Positions 4,620 through 63,921 of a stretch of 64,000 nucleotides of DNA are shown in pieces. The DNA lies in the NCBI GenBank assembly GCA_963806555.1, contig CAWDYR010000016.1, positions 98,108 to 162,107 of the forward strand, read 5' to 3'. The stretch comes from an uncultured Bacteroidales bacterium. Its GTDB lineage: Bacteria; Bacteroidota; Bacteroidia; Bacteroidales; VadinHA17. The notes beneath the pieces are model-generated. The model was not told where the DNA came from. It saw only the letters and a program-made list of their open reading frames with translations, and did no database searches. The translations under genes and the position numbers were made by a program. The stretch's first letter is position 1. Each line of letters opens with the position of its first letter.

Positions 4620-4639
4620 AGGTTTAACCCCTGCTGGAG

Positions 4640-4712
4640 GCATGTGGTGGAGGGGAAATTTATGTTACTGAAATTCAATTGCATACAGTTAGATTCATAA
4701 GTTTCCCTATTC
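4640..4712 (+). repeat. solo right-arm fragment of the nested-palindrome element
   Basis: gcatgtggtggaggggaaatttatgttactgaaattcaattgcatacagttagattcataagtttccctattccttaag matches the right arm (ggaggggaaatgtaa..ttgcatacagtt.gattcataagcta.cccattccttagg) of the full copies. It shares the gYatgtggtgKagggga variant with the copy at 1040. Confidence 0.6.
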
Positions 4713-4854
4713 CTTAAGATCGCACATAACATGTTAGTGCCAAATAAAAAAGCAAATATATTCCCTTAATATTATGATTATAAAAAAAGTCCGCTTACTT
4801 TTGCGGCTCGTTAAAGTACTCCATTTAGCGATGGATGCAGGATGGTATGTTTTT

Positions 4855-4910: not shown

Positions 4911-5334
<424 letters not shown>

Positions 5335-9577: not shown

Positions 9578-9936
9578 CATAGCCGTCAACCTAAGAACCA
9601 GTTTTGGACTGGTAATTATTTAATTAGCTGAGACACAATTAAATAAGTTTCCCCTCCTTTTGAAGGAGGGGTGGCCAGACGGTAAAATCATATCACAGAC
9701 AGAAACTAAATTCGTCTGGCCGGGGTGGTTGATTCAAGTATTTCTCACTACCTTTCAAATGGATAGACTTGAAACATAAATTAACCACCCCGGCCGGGAA
9801 AACAGATTGTAAACCACTCAAAATCTATAGTCCCGGCCACCCCTCCTTGAAAAGGAGGGGAAATGTAAATTATTGCAACTCAGTTGCATACAGTTCGATT
9901 CATAAGCTATCCCATTCTTTAGGTTGATGGCTATGG
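9578..9936 (+). repeat. nested-palindrome intergenic element, full copy A (MITE-like)
   Basis: It starts with catagccgtcaacctaagaa and ends with ttctttaggttgatggctatgg, which form inverted termini. It contains the six-hairpin series described for copy D. The outer boundary is uncertain because C-rich tracts abut both ends. Confidence 0.8.
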
Positions 9937-20708: not shown

Positions 20709-21073
20709 CATGGCTGTCGGCTTAAGAATAAGTTTTAGACTAAGAATTATTTAATTAGCTGAAATACAATTAAATAACTTTCCCCTCCTTTTAAAGGAGG
20801 GGTGGCCAGACGTGAAATCATCTTACAGGCTGAAATTAAATTCGTCTGGCCGGGGTGGTTGATTTAAGTCTTTCTTATCAAGAAGTTTTTTCAAGCAAGC
20901 TTAGAATTTTGAAACATAGATTAACCACCCCGGCCGGGAAAGCGAATAGTAACCGTTTAAAAGTCAATCGGCCCGGCCACCCCTCCTTGAGAAGGAGGGG
21001 AAATGTAATATATTGAATATCTGTTATATACAGTCTGATTTAGAAGCTATCCTATTTTTTTAGATTGGCTATG
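20709..21073 (+). repeat. nested-palindrome element, full copy C
   Basis: It has the same module order as copies A and D. The sequence is catggctgtcggcttaagaa...tttcccctccttttaaaggaggggtggccagacg...cgtctggccggggtggtt...aaccaccccggccggg...cccggccacccctccttgagaaggagggg...gattggctatg. It lies between two convergent genes. Confidence 0.8.
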
Positions 21074-22823: not shown

Positions 22824-22985
22824 GCCAGGTTATTTTATTCATCTAATTTAACTGATTTAAGTTACAATGCATCGGCTATTAAGAATTTCGGATTGCGGAG
22901 GCTGTATCAACACGCGACCTCCTGAACCGGCGCTTATATAGATTATGCCTCTTCCACCGGGAAAGGGGATAAAAGGAGTGCGGTG

Positions 22986-23341
22986 CATAGCCAAAGAGTC
23001 AATTTTAATCTGAGGATTATTTAATTAGCTGAAACACAATTAAATAACTTTCCCCTCCTTTTGAAGGAGGGGTGGCCAGACGGTGAAATCATCTCACACG
23101 CAGAAACTAAATTCGTCTGGCCGGGGTGGTTGATTCAAGTCTTTTTTTATTACTTATATTCTAATGGATAGACTTGAAACATAGATTAACCACCCCGGCC
23201 GGGAAAACAGATTGTAAACTCCTCAAAATCTATAGTCCCGGCCACCCCTCCTTGAAAAGGAGGGGAAATGTAAAATATTGCAAATCTGTTACATACAGTT
23301 TGATTCATAAGCTAACCCATTCCTTAGGTTGACGGCTATGG
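22986..23341 (+). repeat. nested-palindrome element, full copy D (best preserved; reference for hairpin coordinates)
   Basis: Six hairpins are seen. H1 is 23017-23047 (ttatttaatt/aattaaataa). H2 is 23052-23072 (cccctcc/ggagggg). H3 is 23076-23120 (ccagacg/cgtctgg). H4 is 23121-23198 (ccggggtggtt..ttcaagtc/gacttgaa..aaccaccccgg). H5 is 23199-23241 (ccggg/cccgg). H6 is 23245-23265 (cccctcc/ggagggg). The right arm runs to ggctatgg at 23341. Confidence 0.85.
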
Positions 23342-23430
23342 CGAATAGGGGGTGATTTTGTGCAAAGGGGATTAATCTATATAAGTGCCCCTGAACCCCT
23401 CCCAAAGAGGCTGTCTAAAAATTCCTTTTT

Positions 23431-23532
23431 AACCGCAAAGATCGCTAAGATGTCGCAAAGAACGCAAAGCTAAAGCACATATGTTCAGCTCTTTGCGAAC
23501 TTTGCGGTTTTCCTTTGCGCCCTCTGCGGTTA
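23431..23532. repeat. array of CGCAAAG words (3 forward, 4 reverse) forming a long hairpin
   Basis: The sequence is aaCCGCAAAG..gtCGCAAAGaaCGCAAAG..(loop)..CTTTGCGaaCTTTGCGGttttcCTTTGCGccCTCTGCGGtt. It lies in the divergent folP/tmk intergenic region next to element copy D. Confidence 0.8.
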
Positions 23533-23610
23533 AGGGATTTTGCTTAATATGGAACCATTAATGATTTTTAAAAAACTGAATATAAGTTTCCTTCTTTGAC
23601 AGGGCATTAT

Positions 23611-33801: not shown

Positions 33802-36596
33802 ATGGAAGGGAATATTGAGATCAGGGGAGCAAGGGTTCATAATCTGAAAAATATAAGTCTCAGCATACCAAGAAACAGGTTTATTGTAATTACGGGAGTT
33901 TCAGGATCGGGGAAATCTTCTCTTGCTTTCGATACAATTTATGCCGAAGGGCAGAGAAGGTATGTTGAGAGTCTCTCATCGTATGCGCGTCAATTTCTGG
34001 GCAGGATGAATAAACCTGAAGTCGATTTTATAAACGGGATCCCTCCTGCCATTGCAATAGAACAGAAGGTAAATTCGCGGAATCCGCGGTCAACAGTCGG
34101 AACTTCAACAGAGATCTATGATTATCTGAGGCTTTTGTATGCGAGGATCGGCAGGACATTTTCACCTGTTTCGGGAAAAGAGGTTAAGCGTCACAGCGCC
34201 GACGACCTCGTCAACTACCTTACATCCCTGCCGGAAGGTACAAAAGTGGTTATAACCTCACCCGGGAGCATCCCTGAAACCATTAAAATGCAGGAATACT
34301 TTTCATTTCTTGTAAAACAGGGGTTCAACCGGCTGGAGGAAAACGGTGAACTGATCAGGATTGACGGCCCGGTTGATGAACACAAGTTCAGTCCCTGCCA
34401 GAAGGTTAATATTGTCATCGACCGGCTGGTGACCAGCAATGATTCAGATAACATGAGCCGGTCAGCCGATTCAGCCCAGACCGCTTTTCAAACGGGTAAA
34501 GGACATTGCCAGGCTGTTGTTTTTGGAGACAACGGGTTGACAAGAGAAAATTTCTCTGTCAAATTTGAAGAAGATGGAATTGAATTTGAAGAACCGTCAG
34601 AATACTTTTTCAGTTTTAACAATCCCATTGGTGCATGTCCGGTTTGTGAAGGATATGGAAAAATTATAGGTATAGATGAGAATCTTGTAATACCCGACCA
34701 GAATCTTTCTGTCTTTCAGGATGCCATTGCCTGCTGGAAAGGGGAATCGATGAAAAAATGGAAAGAGCGTCTGGTATCAAGCGCCGACCTGTTTGACTTC
34801 CCGGTACATAAACCGTACTATCAGCTTACCGATGAGCAGAAAGAGCTTATCTGGAAGGGGAACAGGTATTTTTACGGGCTGAACCGGTTCTTTGAACATC
34901 TCGAAGAAAAGAAATACAAGATCCAGTACAGGGTTCTGCTGAGCCGTTACCGGGGCAAGACGATCTGTCCGGAATGCAAAGGGAGCAGGCTGAGAAAAGA
35001 GACATCGTATGTAAAGGTATCGGGAAGGACAATACAGGAGCTTGTATCCCTTCCGGTAGGAAGGTTTTACTCACTTCTCGCGGATATTGAGCTGACGGAG
35101 GCGGAGGCAAAAATCGCGGAACGGCTTCTCAAAGAGATCAGCCAGAGGTTGAAATTCCTTATCGATGTGGGTCTCTCCTATCTTACTCTTAACCGGCTGT
35201 CATCATCCTTATCAGGGGGAGAATCACAGCGGATAAACCTTGCAACTTCGCTCGGAAGCAACCTGGTGGGATCGATGTATATTCTTGATGAACCGAGCAT
35301 CGGCCTTCATCCGCGTGATACAAATCTTCTTGTAAAAGTTCTTAAGGAGCTCAGGGATCTTGGGAATTCGGTTCTTGTTGTTGAACATGAAGAGGAAATA
35401 ATAAGGGCGGCCGATGAGATAATCGATATGGGCCCTGAAGCCGGACGGCTTGGCGGTGAAGTTGTATTCCAGGGGGGCACTGACTTTTCTGAAAATAACC
35501 GTTCTCTTAACGGCATCCTACCTTAGCGGCAGGATGGCGGTAAAAGTCCCTGCCATACGAAGAAAATGGCATAGTTTTATCGAGATAAAGGGAGCAAGGG
35601 AGAACAATCTTAAAAACATAGATGTAAAATTTCCTCTGCATACCATTACGGCTGTAACAGGGGTGAGCGGATCAGGCAAATCAAGCCTCGTCACCGATAT
35701 TCTTTATAATGCCTTGTCGAACAGGATAAACGGGAACAACCTGAAACCGGGTCAGTTCCGTGAAATAACGGGTGATGTCTCAAGGCTAACCGGCATCGAG
35801 CTTGTTGATCAGAATCCCATCGGGAAATCGAGCCGGTCGAATCCGGTGACTTATATCAAGGCGTATGATGAGATAAGGAAGCTTTTTGCAGAGCAGCAGG
35901 CATCGGTACAGAATAATTTCAGAGCATCTCATTTCTCATTTAATATTGATGGCGGGAGATGCGAAGAGTGCCAGGGTGAAGGCATCATAAGGGTTGAGAT
36001 GCAGTTTATGGCCGATGTTGAGCTGACCTGCGAAAGCTGTAAGGGCATGCGGTTCAAGAGGGAGATACTTGAGGTCAGATATCACGGTAAGAATATATAT
36101 GACATGCTCGAGATGACAATTGATGAAGCCATTGAATTCTTTGAAAGTCACCCGGGGAAAAATGAAAAGAGAATTATTGAAAAGCTTAAGCCGCTTGCTG
36201 ATGTCGGACTGGGTTATATCAAGATGGGGCAGTCATCGAGCACATTGTCAGGCGGGGAAAGCCAAAGGGTTAAGCTTGCATACTTTCTGAGCCAGGAAAA
36301 GGGATCGGGTCATATCCTGTTCATCTTTGACGAACCTACAACCGGGCTTCATTTTCATGATATCAACAAGCTGCTCAAATCAATCAATGCACTTGTGGAT
36401 CATGGTCATTCCGTAATACTTATCGAACATAACCAGGAAGTTATTAAGTGCTGCCGACTGGGTTATAGATCTTGGTCCGGAGGGTGGAGAGGAAGGCGGA
36501 TACGTGGTTTTTGAAGGTAAACCTGAGGATCTGGCAAAAAACAGGAAATCTTATACAGGGCATTTCCTGGCGCCGAAACTGAAAAAAAACACATAG
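33802..36596 (+). pseudogene. uvrA: excinuclease ABC subunit A, at least 2 frameshifts
   Basis: The motifs IRGARVHNLKNI, GVSGSGKSSLAFDT, a second GVSGSGKSSL and LSGGESQR twice are present. The shift at the G6 run 35472-35477 is repaired by removing one G. A second shift lies near 36449-36455. The true end ..[14 protein letters not shown] is at 36594-36596. Confidence 0.92.
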
Positions 36597-36616
36597 GAAC
36601 GTTGATGCAATTATTC

Positions 36617-37060
36617 CTATTGTTTTATTTTGAATCCGAACATAATTGAAACACACCCGCTTGCAGGAGTAACCTCCTGTTTTGTTGAGGTATTGACTTT
36701 CATAACTATGCGGAGCTGCTGGCTTGACTGAAGCTTAAAATCCCAGATGCCTGAAAAGTTTGAATCTTTGTTGGAATAAAGGACATTCTTATTTGCATCG
36801 AGAACCGTAATTTCAATACCCGGCAGCATTTCGTCACAGCATATTGCAAGACGGTATTCCATATCGGAATAGAAAGTTTTAAACAGTTCAGCCTCTTCAC
36901 CTTCAACAAGAACTGCTGCGTGATAATTCCCGTCGTGGATGTAGGATCCAAGTTCAGGAAGACAGGTTTTTTTGGCAAAGGTCTTGCACTGGCCATTAAC
37001 ATTAAGGCCGGAAAAAATCAAAAATAGAACCAGTATTGAAAAAGTCCTGAATATTTTCAT
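36617..37060 (-). CDS. hypothetical secreted protein (147 aa, Cys-containing)
   Basis: Intact ORF with the signal peptide MKIFRTFSILVLFLIFSGLNVNG. I recognise no family. Confidence 0.5.
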   Translation of the reverse strand: MKIFRTFSILVLFLIFSGLNVNGQCKTFAKKTCLPELGSYIHDGNYHAAVLVEGEEAELFKTFYSDMEYRLAICCDEMLPGIEITVLDANKNVLYSNKDSNFSGIWDFKLQSSQQLRIVMKVNTSTKQEVTPASGCVSIMFGFKIKQ

Positions 37061-37159
37061 TATTATTTGATTTTGTTTTTATGTTATGATCGAATCAGCA
37101 TGGTTGCGGCATCCTGAGCTTTTCAATCCGACATCGGCATACCATGCAGGTTAAATATG

Positions 37160-38080
37160 CTATTTGACGAAGCTGTTCCTTATCTCACCGACAACAGTTG
37201 CGAGCTCTTTAAATACTTCCGGGGTAAGATCTGCCTGCACTTCTGATTTCAGGACCGTGACATTGGTAGTCTTATCGTATTCGGGTCTGATTGGTGTTGT
37301 TTTCAGGGTTATCTTATCAAATACAGTCTTAACTCTGGCTACCTGTGCCAGAAGCTCATCTATGGCGGGATTTCCCTTGCTGTCTCCCAGAAGGTTGATA
37401 AGAATATCAACTGAAAGTTTCTGATCAATGATCCTTCCTACTAGTTTGTTACCATTGAAATCCTTCATATCGATAAGCTGGGTGGAGATGTAGAGGCCTT
37501 CCATCCATCCGCCTGTAAGAACGATGGCTGCAATTGCGGGCTGGCCATTATCCTCGAGATAGGAATTTGAATTAAGGTATGTCTGGGAAACAATATCCAT
37601 TATAACCTCAGTGTCATGAATATTCTGTTCCAGTCTGTCGATATCTTCCTGCAGGATAGCATCAAGGATACCCAGACCGTCCGCCATCTTTTTTGCGGCA
37701 TTCATGTAGTTGATTATAAGCTGTGTCTGATCGTACAGGCTGGCGAAACTCAGATCGCATGTATAAATACCAAGATTGAGCGCCATGCTCTTATTGGTAT
37801 TGTAGTTTTTTGTGTTTTCGACAGGATTCAGAAGCTTGTCATCGAATAAAGCTCCGGCAGATTTAATGAGCATAGCAGATTCGAGTGGGGAAGGAAGAGT
37901 ATAGAAGATGGTCTCTGCTTTCTTTATTTCATCATAAATAGCGGCATTATTCTTTGACACATCCAAAGAATCTGCTTCTTTTTTTGTGCCTTTACCGCCC
38001 GAATTGCAGCTTGAAAGAATTAATGCGAACAGAATTGTCATTGCCAGAACACGGTTGGTAGTTAGAAGAAGTTTATTCAT
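37160..38080 (-). CDS. hypothetical lipoprotein (306 aa)
   Basis: Intact ORF with the lipoprotein signal ILFALILSSCNSGG. I recognise no family. Confidence 0.55.
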   Translation of the reverse strand: MNKLLLTTNRVLAMTILFALILSSCNSGGKGTKKEADSLDVSKNNAAIYDEIKKAETIFYTLPSPLESAMLIKSAGALFDDKLLNPVENTKNYNTNKSMALNLGIYTCDLSFASLYDQTQLIINYMNAAKKMADGLGILDAILQEDIDRLEQNIHDTEVIMDIVSQTYLNSNSYLEDNGQPAIAAIVLTGGWMEGLYISTQLIDMKDFNGNKLVGRIIDQKLSVDILINLLGDSKGNPAIDELLAQVARVKTVFDKITLKTTPIRPEYDKTTNVTVLKSEVQADLTPEVFKELATVVGEIRNSFVK

Positions 38081-38176
38081 TTTCGAGGTTTTTTTAAGAT
38101 TCTCTGTGTAATCAGTGCTAAATTAGTACATTATTTTTATTTATCAATAACGCTAAAATCTAATAAATGGTATTTC

Positions 38177-38184
38177 TAACTTTG
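38177..38184 (+). promoter_or_regulatory. candidate -7 box TAacTTTG
   Basis: TAnnTTTG match 17 bp before ATG 38201. Confidence 0.4.
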
Positions 38185-38200
38185 TAACAAATAATTACAA

Positions 38201-38716
38201 ATGATCAGATCTGAAAAAAGACTTAAGGAGCTTGCTCTCGTTTTGGACAGGGATAATCCCCTGCAGATAGAGGATGCGATTGAAGTTCTAAGGAACACCC
38301 AGCCTTTCGAAGGCGCCATAGGTCTGTTGATCTCATACTTTAACAGAAGCGATAATTCGTCAATAAGGAAAGAGATTACAAATTTTATGAATGACCTTAA
38401 AGATCAGGCGGCATGCCGGGAGGTGATGGAGGAGATAAAGAAGAAGATACTTCCCGACACTCTCAGAATGTTAGTCTCATCGTGCTGGCAGTCGGGTCTG
38501 GATTATGCGGCTTTCTCAGCCGACTTTGCAGGCATATTTCTTTTTACGGAGGATTATATGACTGCAGTTGAATGTTTTACCGTAATCGAGTCGTCAGCCC
38601 AAAATTTGACGCGAAAAGAGAAAGATGAGATCATCAGAATTATAACGGAGGGCTCTGCCCTGAGGTCGGAGGAAATGACAGCCCTGGAAACTGAACTCAT
38701 TTCCGTTTTAAAGTAA
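38201..38716 (+). CDS. hypothetical cytoplasmic helical protein (171 aa)
   Basis: Intact ORF with no signal peptide and a helical-repeat-like composition. I recognise no family. Confidence 0.5.
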   Translation: MIRSEKRLKELALVLDRDNPLQIEDAIEVLRNTQPFEGAIGLLISYFNRSDNSSIRKEITNFMNDLKDQAACREVMEEIKKKILPDTLRMLVSSCWQSGLDYAAFSADFAGIFLFTEDYMTAVECFTVIESSAQNLTRKEKDEIIRIITEGSALRSEEMTALETELISVLK

Positions 38717-38731
38717 GAAGGGGGATTCGGT

Positions 38732-39093
38732 CCATAGCTGCATCTTAAGGAATGCCATGGCTTATAAATACAACTGTATACCACTGAGTTGCAATAGATT
38801 TTACATTTCCCCTCCTTTTCAAGGAGGGGTGGCCGGGACTAAACATTTTGAGGGGTTTACAATTTGTTTTCCCGGCCGGGGTGGTTAATCTATGTTTAAA
38901 GTCTATCCAATTGAAAAAAGGTAATAAGAAAGACTTGAATCAACCACCCCGGCCAGACGAATTTAGACTCTGCGTGAGATATGATTTCACCGTCTGGCCA
39001 CCCCTCCTTCAAAAGGAGGGGAAACTTATTTAATTGTACTTCAGCTAATTAAATAATTATCATTCTAAAACTGATTCTTAGGATCGGCAATGG
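38732..39093 (-). repeat. nested-palindrome element, full copy E (reverse orientation)
   Basis: The reverse complement aligns end to end with copies A, C and D. The plus-strand sequence reads ccatagctgcatcttaaggaa...catttcccctccttttcaaggaggggtggccggg...aaccaccccggccagacg...cgtctggccacccctccttcaaaaggagggg...aattaaataa...ggcaatgg. It lies between convergent genes. Confidence 0.8.
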
Positions 39094-39134
39094 TTTAACC
39101 ACCCGGCCGGTTATGGGTTTCGGTCGCCCGCTAT

Positions 39135-40112
39135 TTATTCAAACGAGGAAAAATACTTCATGAACTGGGTTCTTTCAAATATCGCAGGTTCAGGGTAATT
39201 AAGATAGTTCAGCCTGCCTCTGAAATCGCCGATACTTTTGAAGTTGTTAGCTGCCATCCAGTCCGATATCTGCTTGTTCATAGTTTTGAGATACCCTATA
39301 CCTTTATTATATAGTACTGAACAAACCTGAACGGTATTGGCTCCTGCAAGCAGATATTTTACGGCATCCTGACCGGAATGCACACCTGTGGAGGCTGAAA
39401 TATCAAGCTTTATGTCCTGCGCGCTGGCCATTCCTATCCATCTGAGGACATGTCTTTTTTCACTTTCGTTGCTGAATATCGATGCAGGTATTACTTCCAT
39501 CCTGTTAATGTCGATATCAGGTTCATAAAACCTGTTAAACATGACAACGCCTTCGATTCCCCTCATATAGAACTGGTCGAGCATATACAGGATATTGGAG
39601 AATCTGAATCCGATTTTCAGGGCAACCGGGATAGTAATTGTCTTTTTAAGATTTTCAATCAGGTCGAAATAGAGTTTTTCCGATTCAGCGGATGACTTCT
39701 TCCTGTCGACAGGCATAAAAAATACATTGATCTCGATTGCATCAGCGCCTGCATCCTCAATGTTTTTTGCAAATCCGGTCCATCCTTTTGAGGAATAGCA
39801 ATTGATGCTCGGGATAACCGGAATGCTAAGGCTTTTCTTTGCATTCCTGATCAGATCAAGATAAGTATCAACCGAATTTGATTGTATATAATTTGCAATA
39901 TAGTCATCTGCTTCCGGGAATCCCGGAGTTGAAGGGAATTGAATTGATATGATAATTTATCTGTTCCTCAAAAAGCGATTTCAGAACCACCGCCCCTGCC
40001 CCTGAATCCTCAGCTTCCCTGAGCTGGCCAATAGTTGAGGTGAGCCTGCTGCTGCTGACGATCAGCGGGCTTTGAAGAGTAAAACCCAGGTATTTTGCAT
40101 AAGTTTTTCCAT
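39135..40112 (-). pseudogene. dihydroorotate dehydrogenase-like protein (paralogue of 13315-14292), at least 3 frameshifts
   Basis: ATG 40112 gives MEK(T)YAKYLGFTLQSPLIVSSS..GAGAVVLKSLFEEQI after correcting the A/T run at 40104-40108. It continues through 39659-39844 to ORF 39135-39716 (..LLAGANTVQVCSVLY..). Confidence 0.7.
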
Positions 40113-40140
40113 ATTATCAATGGTTTCTTTGAATTGGATT

Positions 40141-40811
40141 TTACTTTCTTTCACCAAATATAAGACTTCCTATCCTTACTATTGTACTCCCCTCGCTCAC
40201 CGCAATTTTATAATCACCCGACATTCCCATTGAGATCTCTTTGAAACTCAGGCTGTCTCTTAAAATAACTTTCTTTAAGTTCATGAAAGCAATCGCAAGA
40301 TATCTGAACTCTTTTCGGATCTGTTCAGGCATCATCGGTGAATGTTGCCATTCCCATCACACCGCAAATTCTTATGAAGTTCATTTTCCGGAAATCTCAG
40401 AACCTGCAGCTTCATGAAGTTCCTCCATGCTGAAACCAAATTTTGTCTCTTCCTCTGCAATATGGATCTGCAGAAGACAGTCTATTACCCTGTGAATCTT
40501 AGAAGCTTCGGAGTTTATCTGTTTCATTAATTTAAAGGTATCAACAGATTCGATCATGCTGATAAAAGGCACGATATACTTTACTTTGTTTGATTGCAGA
40601 TGGCCAATAAGATGCCATTCAATGTCAGCGGGAAGTGAATCTTTTTTGGAAAGCAGCTCCTGAACCCGGTTTTCGCCGAAGCATTTATGACCCGAATTAT
40701 ATGCTTCAAGAATAGTCTTCGGACAGGTTTTGTTTTTGATACGGCAACAAGTTTTACAGAAGCAGGCAACTGTTCTTTGAGTAATCTGATATTTGAAGCA
40801 ATTTCAGCCAT
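40141..40811 (-). pseudogene. yggS: YggS-family pyridoxal-phosphate homeostasis protein, about 3 frameshifts
   Basis: MAEIASNIRLLKEQLPASVKLVAVSKTKPV (ORF 40581-40811) continues in ORFs 40381-40572 and 40141-40335 (..MGMSGDYKIAVSEGSTIVRIGSLIFGER). Confidence 0.8.
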
Positions 40812-42205
40812 TTATAAGATTTTTCTCTGTGACTCTCGTGCTTCCTCAATGGATCTCTGTGTAACTTAAAATCAGAACTAAAAGAGAGGATCGCAGGGGG
40901 CCCGAGCTCTAAGTCGAGAAGATGAATTACGAGTCCGCTCCTCAGCTTGGGTTCAAACCAGGTTGTTTTTGGAGGCATTATATTTCCCGAATCCGCAATA
41001 TTTATAAGCTGCTTCATCGAAACCGGATAAAGGGCAAATGCGACTTTCATCTCTCCGCTGTCGACCCTTCTCTTAAGCTCATCAAGTCCTCTGATGCCGC
41101 CAATGAAATCAATTCTTTTTGACCGTCTGAGATCCTGGATATCAAGAATCGGTTTAAGTACCTGCTCAGCGAGTATTGTAACATCAAGCACTCCTATCGG
41201 ATCATTGTCGTTATAAGTACCTGGTTTTGCCGACAGGCTGTACCATTTACCTTCGATGTACATTGAAAAGTCATGCAGCTTTTCAGGCTTGTAGATCCGG
41301 GCGCCTTTCTCATTAACAACAAATCCCTTGGAGAGTCTTGAAAGAAACTCATCCACAGTAAGACCATTAAGGTCTTTCACGGTGCGGTTATAGTCCATGA
41401 TCCTCAGCTGGTTGTCGGGGAAATGCACGGCTAAAAAATAATTGAACTCCTCGGTACCCTTATACCCGGGGCTCTTTTCCCGCTTCTCTTTGCCAACAAG
41501 CGCTGCCGCAGCGGTGCGATGATGACCGTCGGCAACATAGGTAAACGGAACTTTTTCTGCAAAAAGCTTTTCAATCAGTCTGTTTGTATCCTGGTTTTTT
41601 ACTACCCAGAAATGATGTCCGATACCGTCGTCGGCGACAAAGTCATATTCCGGCTTCTCGCTAAGAACTATTGAGTTGACGATATCATCGATCTCTTTTA
41701 CTGCCGGATAGGTGAAGAAAACAGGTTCAATATTTGCATTATTGACTCTGACATGGATCATGCGGTCCTGTTCTTTATCAGGCCTGGTAAGTTCATGTTT
41801 TTTTATGATCCCGTTCAGATAATCATCTACTGAAGCGCATCCGGCAATTCCATACTGTGTCCTGCCCTGCATGGTCTGGGCATAGATATAAAAATGAGGC
41901 TCCTGATCCTGTTTCAGCCAGCCTTTTTTCTGCCACAAAGCAAAATTATCAACTGATTTCTTATAAACTTCTTCAGAATGAACGTCCGTACCGGGAGGAA
42001 GATCGATCTCTGAACGTGTAATATGAAGAAGAGAACACTCCTTGCCCTTTGCCATTTTCATTGCCTCCTCAGTATTCATTACATCGTAAGGCAGGCATGC
42101 CAGATCCCTGGCAATATCATGGGGAGGTCTTAACCCCCTGAAAGGTTTGACAACAGCCATCTTATTTCTACTTATATTCCAAGTATTTTTATTTATTTCT
42201 GTCAC
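40754..42205 (-). CDS. DUF1015 domain-containing protein (real start probably 42160; 3' end uncertain)
   Basis: MAVVKPFRGLRPPHDIA... is the usual DUF1015 N-terminus. Homology-like sequence ends around ..TWFEPKLRSGLVIHLLD (about 40900). The remaining roughly 45 codons overlap yggS and look like read-through. Confidence 0.7.
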   Translation of the reverse strand: MTEINKNTWNISRNKMAVVKPFRGLRPPHDIARDLACLPYDVMNTEEAMKMAKGKECSLLHITRSEIDLPPGTDVHSEEVYKKSVDNFALWQKKGWLKQDQEPHFYIYAQTMQGRTQYGIAGCASVDDYLNGIIKKHELTRPDKEQDRMIHVRVNNANIEPVFFTYPAVKEIDDIVNSIVLSEKPEYDFVADDGIGHHFWVVKNQDTNRLIEKLFAEKVPFTYVADGHHRTAAAALVGKEKREKSPGYKGTEEFNYFLAVHFPDNQLRIMDYNRTVKDLNGLTVDEFLSRLSKGFVVNEKGARIYKPEKLHDFSMYIEGKWYSLSAKPGTYNDNDPIGVLDVTILAEQVLKPILDIQDLRRSKRIDFIGGIRGLDELKRRVDSGEMKVAFALYPVSMKQLINIADSGNIMPPKTTWFEPKLRSGLVIHLLDLELGPPAILSFSSDFKLHRDPLRKHESHREKSYKWLKLLQISDYSKNSCLLL

Positions 42206-45021: not shown

Positions 45022-45043
45022 CCCTGTTTATTAGACAAATTAG

Positions 45044-45178
45044 TCCGTTTTATCTGCGTTAACCTGCCTGCCGGCAGGCAGGTCTGCGAAATCTGCGGGA
45101 AAACAAATTAATCCACTTTATCTGCGTTAACCTTCCTACCGGCAGGCAGGTCTGCAAAATCTGCGGAAAAAAATATCC
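45044..45178. repeat. two tandem 68/67-bp units containing a 22-bp palindrome and CTGCG words
   Basis: Unit 1 is 45044-45111 and unit 2 is 45112-45178. Unit 1 holds the perfect palindrome acctgcctgcc/ggcaggcaggt (45062-45083), followed by tCTGCGaaatCTGCGGGaaaac. The repeat lies between the gcvT stop and the ComB-like start. Confidence 0.85.
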
Positions 45179-47254: not shown

Positions 47255-47294
47255 GAACCCACCCCCGACCCCTCCGAGGAGGGGAGCCGAAGAG
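47255..47294 (+). repeat. 40-bp hairpin element AACCCACCCCCGACCCCTCCGAGGAGGGGAGCCGAAGAG (copy 1, 3' of clpB)
   Basis: It has a CCCCTCC/GGAGGGG hairpin preceded by a C-rich tract. A direct copy lies at 50121-50161 and an inverted copy at 50040-50072. Confidence 0.8.
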
Positions 47295-47330
47295 AAAAAT
47301 CCAACTCTCAGAATAACTCTTTTAATTTAT

Positions 47331-50120: not shown

Positions 50121-50161
50121 GAACCCACCCCCAACCCCTCCGGAGGAGGGGAGCCGAAGAG
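50121..50161 (+). repeat. direct copy of the clpB-flanking hairpin element (5' side of clpB)
   Basis: gaacccacccccaacccctccggaggaggggagccgaagag is nearly identical to 47255-47294. Confidence 0.8.
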
Positions 50162-50314
50162 AAGAACCCTTCCCTCAGGATATTCTTATTGACAAAAAAG
50201 GAAAAATATATAACAGATGGTCGGGTCGAAAAAGAAATTATGTTCCTATGATTCCGTATCAGGTGAAGGACTTTGCGTTTAAATAAAACGGTATCTTTAA
50301 AGAAAAAAAGCCGA

Positions 50315-63530: not shown

Positions 63531-63595
63531 TCAGTTTTTTATAAATATCCATAACAAAATCAGGGATTTTCATATGACAGGTATCAGCTTTCTGG

Positions 63596-63879
63596 AGGGA
63601 GCGAGGGAGCGAGGGAGCGAGGGAGCGATGGAGCGAGGGAGCGAGGGAGAGATGGAGCGAGGGAGCGAGGGAGCGAGGGAGCGAGGGAGCGAGGGACGAT
63701 GGAGCGAGGGAGCGATGGAGCGAGGGAGCGAGGGAGCGATGGAGCGAGGGAGCGATGCGCAGGGCATCAGGGCACAGAGCCAGGGCTAGAGCGCAGGGAG
63801 CGGGGAGCAGGGAGCAGGGGAGCGAGGGAGCGAGGGAGACGATGGGAGCGATGGAGCGAGGGAGCGAGGGAGCGAGGGA
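63596..63879 (+). repeat. 8-bp tandem array (GAGGGAGC)n with GATGGAGC variants and a degenerate centre
   Basis: Direct reading shows period 8, which is not a multiple of 3. The plus strand is purine-rich and I count 28 G3+ tracts. The array is interrupted by related G-rich sequence at about 63757-63800. Confidence 0.9.
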
Positions 63880-63921
63880 CTCTGCGAAACTCTGCGGATT
63901 TAAATCTGCGAAACTCTGCGA
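63880..63921. repeat. CTCTGCG word repeat (member of the CTYTGYG family)
   Basis: CTCTGCGaaaCTCTGCGGatttaaatCTGCGaaaCTCTGCGag directly abuts the 8-mer array. Confidence 0.75.

Follow-up and report, generated by a model that had tools for sequence, protein, structure and literature searches.

What kind of element is the hairpin-rich repeat between folP and tmk, and how did it come to lie there? The repeat is found in a stretch of 64,000 nucleotides from an uncultured Bacteroidales bacterium of the VadinHA17 lineage (GenBank assembly GCA_963806555.1, contig CAWDYR010000016.1, positions 98,108 to 162,107), and we call the whole of this stretch the window. One copy of the repeat, copy D, occupies the intergenic region between folP and tmk, which are divergent genes. 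An earlier sequence-only reading had described it as six hairpins in mirror order with inverted termini, and had proposed a transposable element of the miniature inverted-repeat kind (MITE), a highly structured RNA or a cruciform-forming DNA site. Our analysis makes it very probable that the element is a non-autonomous MITE of 355 bp that carries the ends of IS231-like insertion sequences (ISs) of the IS4 family. Every property of a MITE that could be tested was found: terminal inverted repeats (TIRs), 10-bp target duplications, autonomous partner ISs with the same ends, and an empty site in a close relative. Alignment to other copies places copy D at 22986 to 23340 on the + strand. Thus, the start given by the sequence-only reading is correct, and its end at 23341 is one nucleotide too long. 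Copy D is non-coding, and its sole internal open reading frame (ORF), of 52 amino acids, has no Pfam match.

The ends of the family read CATAGCCGTCAACYTAAG. They are present at both ends of copy B and of dozens of relatives, and the TIRs extend over about 18-22 bp (CATAGCCGTCAACYTAAGRA). When 23 copies from other genomes are aligned, their limits are sharp, CATAGCCGTCAACYTAAG ... CTTARGTTGACGGCTATG, with direct repeats alongside. Across 28 terminus pairs, the identity between left and right flanks peaks at a length of k = 10, where it reaches 0.72, compared with 0.43 at k = 9 and 0.44 at k = 11; when flanks of different copies are paired as a control, the identity is 0.39. The 10-bp flanks have no more than one mismatch in 12 of the 28 pairs. 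From 22 clean 10-bp duplications, the target consensus is SSCTnnAGSS, which is palindrome-like and GC-flanked. Every one of the about 70 copies found through the central hairpin alone (H4, see below) has CATAGCC... termini, and for this reason we reject a core that would be an element in its own right, nested in a MITE.

The two ends of copy D itself are in different states. Its right TIR (23319 to 23340, - strand) is intact: the reverse complement, CATAGCCGTCAACCTAAGGAAT, has 0 mismatches to the 18-nt consensus and conforms to the end signature of the IS231 subgroup, CAT-------AA--TAA---. The left terminus (22986 to 22998, + strand) is degenerate. By alignment, CATAGCC is followed by a 7-nt deletion relative to CATAGCCGTCAACCTAAG, with the junction CATAGCC^AAAGAG, and no match to the TIR is found there within 6 edits. 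The inverted termini described in the sequence-only reading are therefore clear only in other copies, for example copy B at 9578-9935; in copy D the left end is damaged.

The folP-tmk locus records insertion events in the lineage of the window. The spacer between the genes measures 817 bp in the window, 456 bp in a sister metagenome-assembled genome (MAG) and 388 bp in GCA_049283055.1 (locus L217), whose folP protein is 95% identical to that of the window. L217 represents the empty site, since it aligns with the window on both sides but is without positions 22929-23397. The missing segment contains an outer small TIR element (22929 to 23389) that hosts copy D. This outer element has 25-nt inverted termini, GGCGCTTATATAGATTA and, as the reverse complement at the other end, GGCACTTATATAGATTA; the sequence that is its own amounts to about 106 bp. 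On both sides it is bounded by a perfectly matching 8-bp target duplication, CCTGAACC, at 22921 to 22928 on the left and 23390 to 23397 on the right (both + strand). No other copies of it occur in the window or in the fetched loci. Copy D is a fossil, nested in this second small TIR element. Beside it, at 23420-23540, lies a dense block of short CGCAAAG/CTTTGCG and TCTGCG units, and a similar block at 45035-45170 consists of two 68-bp tandem units. Since the 23.4-kb block is conserved in L217, it is older than the insertion.

Where do the ends come from? The signature CAT-------AA--TAA---, together with direct repeats of 10-12 bp, has been described for the IS231 subgroup (PMC2266710, Table 1), and CATAGCCGTCAACCTAAGAA agrees with every specified position. 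In the annotated plasmid pBtoxis, the ends of IS231F read CATGCCCATCAACTTAAGAA and, on the opposite side, ...GGA, and the IS has an 11-bp duplication. These ends are identical to those of our family at 16 of 20 positions. Judged by their sequence, the ends are assignable to the IS231 subgroup of the IS4 family. The sequence-only reading had recognized no named family; this appears to hold for the MITE itself, which seems to be undescribed, but not for its ends.

Autonomous partners with these ends exist. A scan of metagenomes by terminus gave 120 loci, in which 15 terminus pairs lie 1.44-1.86 kb apart and 33 lie 100-800 bp apart. Each of the partner elements of about 1.6 kb has a single ORF. 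These ORFs score 193-225 bits on the NCBIfam model NF033592 (IS4 family; cutoff 115), which is the sole model above cutoff for them and the best model of IS231F too (353 bits); Pfam DDE_Tnp_1 was also matched. The protein of locus L103 has 34% identity to the IS231F transposase (E 2e-64). An intact Y-x2-R-x3-E-x6-K motif is found in 14 of the 15 partner elements. When the partner ISs are aligned with IS231F, the residues D78, D149 and E284 as well as Y277, R280, E284 and K291 are invariant, and the D-D spacing of 71 and the D-E spacing of 135 are inside the family definition D(60-110)D(100-150)E. A profile search of protein databases returned 956 relatives at E <= 1e-40, with Bacillus IS231 transposases interleaved with metagenome proteins, and one relative is annotated as 'MAG: IS4 family transposase [Bacteroidia bacterium]'. 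On the contigs of three of these relatives, all the ISs again have these termini and lie between 10-bp duplications that match perfectly (GTGGAGACAC, its reverse complement, and GGGATGGGGG). This route is independent of the DNA pattern and thus provides independent confirmation that the ISs and the MITEs are linked by their ends.

Two candidates were rejected. A match to the YREK pattern adjoining a copy in L047 is an esterase-like protein, not a transposase. The other was that the MITE arms or hairpin H6 stem from one IS subgroup, whose right end looks similar by eye; by nhmmer this likeness is not significant (best E 0.15; reversed-sequence controls E about 3). As a separate observation, every insertion of one subgroup of partner ISs (L206-L211, L103, L172, L205 and L213-L215) lies in the same palindrome of 14 bp, TTGTG-nnnn-CACAA. 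The ISs occur there in either orientation and have a 10-bp duplication such as GTGGAGACAC, which implies that the target is chosen with very high specificity or that it is itself a repeated sequence.

How common is the element? By blastn, nhmmer and alignment, the window holds seven copies. Besides copy D, copies B (9578-9935, + strand), C (20709-21073, + strand) and F (38733-39092, - strand) are full length. Copy B has the best-preserved termini, with 0 and 2 mismatches, the termini of copy C are diverged, and copy F has an orthologue in a sister MAG (L035) with an inverted core. Copy E (12816 to about 13075, - strand) is truncated within hairpin H3, and copy A2 (about 4627-4727, + strand) is a right-arm remnant only. 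Copy A (about 891-1125, + strand) is rearranged, retains only the 3' part from the 3' arm of H4 to the right end, and has about 70 bp extra inside H6. All copies in the window are intergenic, and there is no orientation rule: the neighboring genes are divergent at copy D, convergent at copies C and F, and co-directional at copies B and E. The motif CCCCTCCTTNNNAAGGAGGGG occurs eight times in the window, compared with 0 expected from shuffles. Outside the window, a family scan was made with the base of H4 as the pattern and with one genome per species. It found relatives in at least 14 MAGs (Bacteroidales, Rikenellaceae, 'Bacteroidota') and at least 24 loci in one MAG. Moreover, 35 of the 120 metagenome loci chosen only by terminus contain parts of the element. 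The terminus had 0 matches in a scan of viral contigs, and copy D matched nothing in the plasmid and phage collections by blastn.

Some of the hits outside the window, and some copies within it, have features of their own. Typical MITE copies occur in L002, a 2.4-kb contig of a Cloacimonadota MAG, and in L076, a 383-kb contig of a 'delta proteobacterium' MAG. The copy in L002 is nearly identical to the Rikenellaceae copy L026, so mis-binning is likely; the copy in L076 could reflect mis-binning or horizontal spread. The Collinsella loci that the H4-pattern scan returned were rejected, as they do not match the element profile. They represent an unrelated intergenic palindrome: L015:5348-5420 and about 25 other Collinsella loci have a conserved, perfect palindrome with arms of about 34 bp that has only the 13-mer GGCCGGGGTGGTT in common with H4. 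Four copies, each of them from the lineage of the window, have the extra sequence of about 70 bp (…GGGGGCCGAGCGTTAAGAAATCAGCCAGTGGCTGATTTTAGCGAAGGAGCCAGCCTGCAGGG…) within H2 or H6, either in the loop or in the stem (window about 962-1045, with the core match at 978-1015; L005:3226-3263; L047:1873-1910; L080:3294-3331). It may be a tiny insertion that targets the hairpin or a subfamily variant. Either side of the rearranged copy A, at 822-841 and 1127-1146, there is a 20-bp direct repeat, GGGGGACGGGGGTGAGTACG, which its length and its offset rule out as the 10-bp duplication; it is probably part of another G-rich repeat.

What lies between the ends is a series of hairpins, and each of the six that the sequence-only reading listed (H1-H6) was found at its place by direct reading and by an inverted-repeat scan. 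H1 is in the left arm (23017-23026 / 23038-23047; TTATTTAATT / AATTAAATAA, 10/10 complementary) and is confined to the subfamily of the window; a subfamily of about 318 bp is without it. The stem of H2 (23052-23060 / 23064-23072, 9/9 complementary) is part of a 29-nt module at 23049 to 23077, TTTCCCCTCCTTTTGAAGGAGGGGTGGCC, which is kept in all family members. H3 (23074-23082 / 23114-23122; GGCCAGACG ... CGTCTGGCC) is 9/9 complementary. The central hairpin H4 has a base at 23119-23134 / 23185-23200 (GGCCGGGGTGGTT / AACCACCCCGGCC, 94% complementary) and a distal stem at 23131-23142 / 23170-23181 (92% complementary); its base is kept also in copies chosen by termini alone, in which the loops vary from about 50 to 190 nt. 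H5 (23197-23213 / 23227-23243; GGCCGGG ... CCCGGCC) is 82% complementary, and 97% of its cells are paired across copies. The stem of H6 (23245-23253 / 23257-23265, 9/9 complementary) belongs to the right copy of the 29-nt module, at 23240 to 23268. This is the reverse complement of the H2 module, as had been proposed, and the two modules are 97% complementary.

H2 and H6 are inverted copies of each other and each is itself palindromic, so that they are inverted and direct repeats at once. Reading from the sequence, GGGGTGG and CCACCCC each occur twice in copy D, in symmetric placement and about 53 bp apart. The proposal that the whole element is an A-B-C-C'-B'-A' palindrome of palindromes is right in part. 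It applies to the termini, to H2 and H6 as mirror images, and to H4, which is self-palindromic. It fails for H1, which is without a mirror partner, and for H3 and H5, which are different hairpins that share only GGCC-closed stems. The minimum-energy fold of copy D has a long-range pairing of H2 with H6, which closes a three-way junction of H3, H4 and H5. Folded as RNA, the whole copy has an energy of -143.7 kcal/mol, compared with -80.2 kcal/mol for shuffles (z -11.7), and folded as DNA it has -72.2 kcal/mol (z -9.1). The hairpins also survive alignment of the copies. Among 48 distinct cores, in which the H4 base is invariant by construction since the scan required it, 93% of stem cells are paired, compared with 24-53% when the partners are slid. 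Double-sided changes affect five pairs (18 cells), mostly in H3, where they are seen in 4 of the 8 pairs, and the covariation score is 0.051 compared with 0.030 in shuffles.

The interior is not IS-derived and is a modular set of GC-clamped, AT-looped hairpins. Relatives of 135 bp have the same ends and arms and a single CCCCTCC/GGAGGGG hairpin. In the forms of about 318 bp and about 355 bp this hairpin is doubled around a cluster of GGCC-bounded hairpins. Other relatives have far longer H4 loops or two H5-H6 modules, and there are many further short elements that share the ends but whose interiors, though just as structured, are unrelated. The core can also be inverted. Locus L035, from an uncultured Bacteroidales MAG, is syntenic with window positions 34675-42178 at about 91% identity and holds the orthologue of copy F, with the same flanks and the same degenerate left terminus. 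The arms of the two copies are collinear, but the segment from H2 to H6 is 80% identical when reverse-complemented and 63% identical in the direct orientation. Therefore the H3-H4-H5 core (23078 to 23239 in copy D) was inverted between the 29-nt modules after the two genomes diverged. In the subfamily of about 318 bp, the same flip sets L022 and L024 apart from about 24 copies, which have the core in the common orientation. As each of the modules H2 and H6 is a palindrome, the pair also forms a direct repeat, and the core-less 135-bp forms are thus readily explained as deletions. We read the flips as occasional recombination or template switching and not as a running switch.

Starting from what we observed (termini with duplications, partner ISs, an empty site, an inversion and a modular interior), the following cycle can be proposed. 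An autonomous IS of about 1.6 kb with the same ends would encode the DDE/YREK transposase, which would bind both termini of the MITE in trans; this step is modeled on IS231/MIC231 and other IS4-family elements. The transposase would then excise the element and make staggered cuts 10 bp apart at a GC-flanked, palindrome-like S-S-C-T-n-n-A-G-S-S target, and insertion would leave a 10-bp duplication. Recombination or template switching between H2 and H6 can flip or delete the H3-H4-H5 core. We infer the mobilization in trans, and likewise any role of the hairpins.

Several observations weigh against this account. The left terminus of copy D is damaged, and its flanks, GAGTGCGGTG and GCGAATAGGG, give no recognisable 10-bp duplication. 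The empty site at this locus records the composite of the outer element and copy D, not copy D alone. No partner IS was seen in the window, where, as in the MAG loci, a tblastn search with the IS231F transposase gave nothing; the co-occurrence of MITEs and ISs is established only at the level of the class Bacteroidia. By blastn-short, the arms and the core have no significant similarity to the partner ISs past the terminal 17-22 bp. Finally, within one MAG the identity of the stems is 91% and that of the loops is 78%. Together with the compensatory changes in H3, this is a hint of constraint beyond the neutral decay of a purely selfish element.

This last point leads to an explanation that is compatible with a MITE, namely that the H2-H6 core is a functional DNA module which the MITE carries, either a cruciform-forming or protein-binding site that would help to join the two transposon ends or an invertible switch whose flipping would alter something locally. 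The inversion at an orthologous locus since genomes of about 91% identity split, the same flip in 2 of the about 26 copies of the 318-bp subfamily, the symmetric GGGGTGG and CCACCCC sites and the stability of the DNA fold all favor it; from the predicted fold, formation of a cruciform is plausible. It is also favored by the stems themselves: copies selected only by terminus have wholly different loops, yet in these too H2/H6 and the H4 base do not vary. However, about 90% of copies have the core in one orientation, so that the flips look like rare accidents, and the genes adjoining the copies are housekeeping genes and not recombinases. The Bacteroidetes -7 motif (TAnnTTTG) is absent from every full copy, and promoter-like sites, sigma-70-like ones included, are not in excess; we reject an invertible promoter on these grounds. 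The functional 135-bp relatives have the same ends but not the core, which is therefore dispensable for the ends. In addition, it may simply be that mutation rate and reliability of alignment are not the same for GC-rich stems as for AT-rich loops. We consider a functional core unlikely. That the core is a selected, self-contained module captured and distributed by IS231-type ends seems to us quite improbable; if true, the MITE would serve to bring a functional structured element to hundreds of Bacteroidales intergenic regions.

Could the element instead be, or encode, a multi-copy structured non-coding RNA, such as a small RNA or a cis-regulatory RNA? The very stable RNA fold and the hairpins kept in the 48 distinct cores, with some covariation in H3, are what such an RNA would show. 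The other observations speak against it. No Rfam family reaches its gathering score in the whole window, and a local search at E <= 1 gave nothing relevant, only two chance-level matches (E 0.6-0.7). The copies lie in either orientation between divergent, convergent or co-directional genes, with no promoter motif, no hairpin followed by a properly placed U-tract terminator and no excess of terminator-like sites. Mismatches in the stems are 16 G.T and 12 A.C, which gives no strand preference, and in a near-palindrome both strands fold alike. Moreover, terminal repeats, duplicated target sites and copies in states of truncation or decay characterize a transposon and not an RNA gene family. The structured RNA that the sequence-only reading had offered is thus not borne out, and we regard it as very unlikely. 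Even less can be said for a cluster of palindromes like those of repetitive extragenic palindromic (REP) sequences or bacterial interspersed mosaic elements, spread by a RAYT-type (Y1) transposase or by recombination and not by a DDE transposase. The several short, GC-rich, intergenic palindromes in alternating orientation and high copy number would fit, as would the inverted H2/H6 doublet, which is REPIN-like. Against this, the units are never found without CATAGCC... termini in the about 70 copies found via H4 alone, the target duplication has a fixed length of 10 bp, and the partners with the same ends have DDE transposases. This explanation is extremely improbable, and we favor the MITE with IS231-type ends.

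The window contains other repeats. At 47262-47315 and 50129-50182 there is a distinct repeat family with a CCCCTCC..GGAGGGG-type hairpin (CCCCNACCCCTCCGAGGAGGGGAGCCGAAGAG), which is not the MITE. A tRNA gene at 4911-4985 is followed by two tandem repeat units of about 175 bp with hairpin and T-run motifs (4970-5042/5146-5218 and 5070-5162/5242-5334, in the region 4911-5334). Near the end of the window, at 63570-63907, lies a long array of 8-nt units (GGGAGCGA / GGGAGCGAT variants) in at least 26 registers.

The findings matter for the annotation of uncultured Bacteroidales, since such repeats take up a visible share of the intergenic DNA, with seven copies in 64 kb. Assemblies break at these repeats, which can also pass for RNA genes or regulatory sites; once the family and its ends have a name, they can be masked and counted. 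The findings also extend IS231-type elements, and the logic of MIC231, in which only the ends are kept and a passenger lies inside, from Bacillus to Bacteroidota and from gene cassettes to high-copy non-coding MITEs. The series from 135-bp forms with a single hairpin to 320-480-bp forms with many hairpins, together with the flip of the core, exemplifies how the interior of a MITE is rebuilt. In addition, the defined 10-bp palindromic target makes the partner transposases tractable for the study of target choice in the IS4 family.

How does the element compare with known systems? Searches of the literature for the terminus and H4 sequences gave only unrelated primer coincidences, and no description of the element was found in the searchable literature. 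The closest likeness is to IS231. In both, the duplicated target covers roughly one turn of the helix, with 10 bp in our family, 11 bp at IS231F in pBtoxis and 10-12 bp across the subgroup. The partner transposases have the DDE and YREK residues, score above the cutoff on the NCBIfam model of IS231F, and are 34% identical to the IS231F transposase. The target here is GC-flanked and palindrome-like; Hallet and colleagues are said to have found in 1994 that IS231A prefers GGG(N)5CCC. Hosts of IS231 and MIC231 are Bacillota (Bacillus cereus group), whereas those here are Bacteroidota, and the copy number here, seven per 64 kb, is far higher. MIC231 cassettes have only the inverted repeats of IS231 in common with the IS and are mobilized in trans (PMC6199540; PMC1196294). 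They carry one or more passenger coding sequences, measure 0.7-3 kb and have a conserved 'CA region' beside the left repeat (PMC6199540). Our elements resemble them in having IS231-type inverted repeats without a transposase, in sharing only the ends with the IS, and in forming a modular family. They differ in being 135-480 bp long and non-coding, with a hairpin interior in place of passenger genes. A CA region (Cs followed by As) after the left terminus is present in IS231F but was not found in copies B, C and F or in the short subfamily. Since it has neither a passenger gene nor a CA region, the element is not a MIC231.

MITEs in which similarity to the parent IS is restricted to the ends, as it is here, have been called 'type II' (PMC4596501). 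The classical MITEs, such as Correia/CREE of Neisseria, ERIC/IRU, RUP and Nezha, and the MITEs of P. gingivalis (BrickBuilt, MITE239/464/700) are likewise short, non-coding and intergenic, with TIRs and a target duplication, strong folding and many copies, some of which are nested or decayed. The P. gingivalis MITEs have IS5-type ends (GAGACCTTTGCA) and are unrelated to the element described here, which has IS4/IS231 ends. Correia and ERIC elements duplicate TA. Compared with the classical MITEs, our element is set apart by its 10-bp duplication, by ends of the IS4/IS231 type and by a core of several hairpins that lies between the 29-nt inverted modules. The hotspot of Tn10, NGCTNAGCN, resembles the symmetric, G/C-flanked CTnnAG core of the target. 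However, Tn10/IS10 makes a 9-bp and not a 10-bp duplication and its ends begin with CT..., not CAT..., so that the family belongs with the IS231 and not the IS10 subgroup. Invertons, which are common in Bacteroidales, are similar in that a segment of about 160-170 bp lies between 29-nt inverted repeats and occurs in both orientations at an orthologous site; here, in contrast, there is no internal promoter motif, no adjoining recombinase gene, and one orientation makes up about 90%. The element is thus an undescribed family of an ordinary kind, and it is notable mainly for an elaborate hairpin core that is able to flip.

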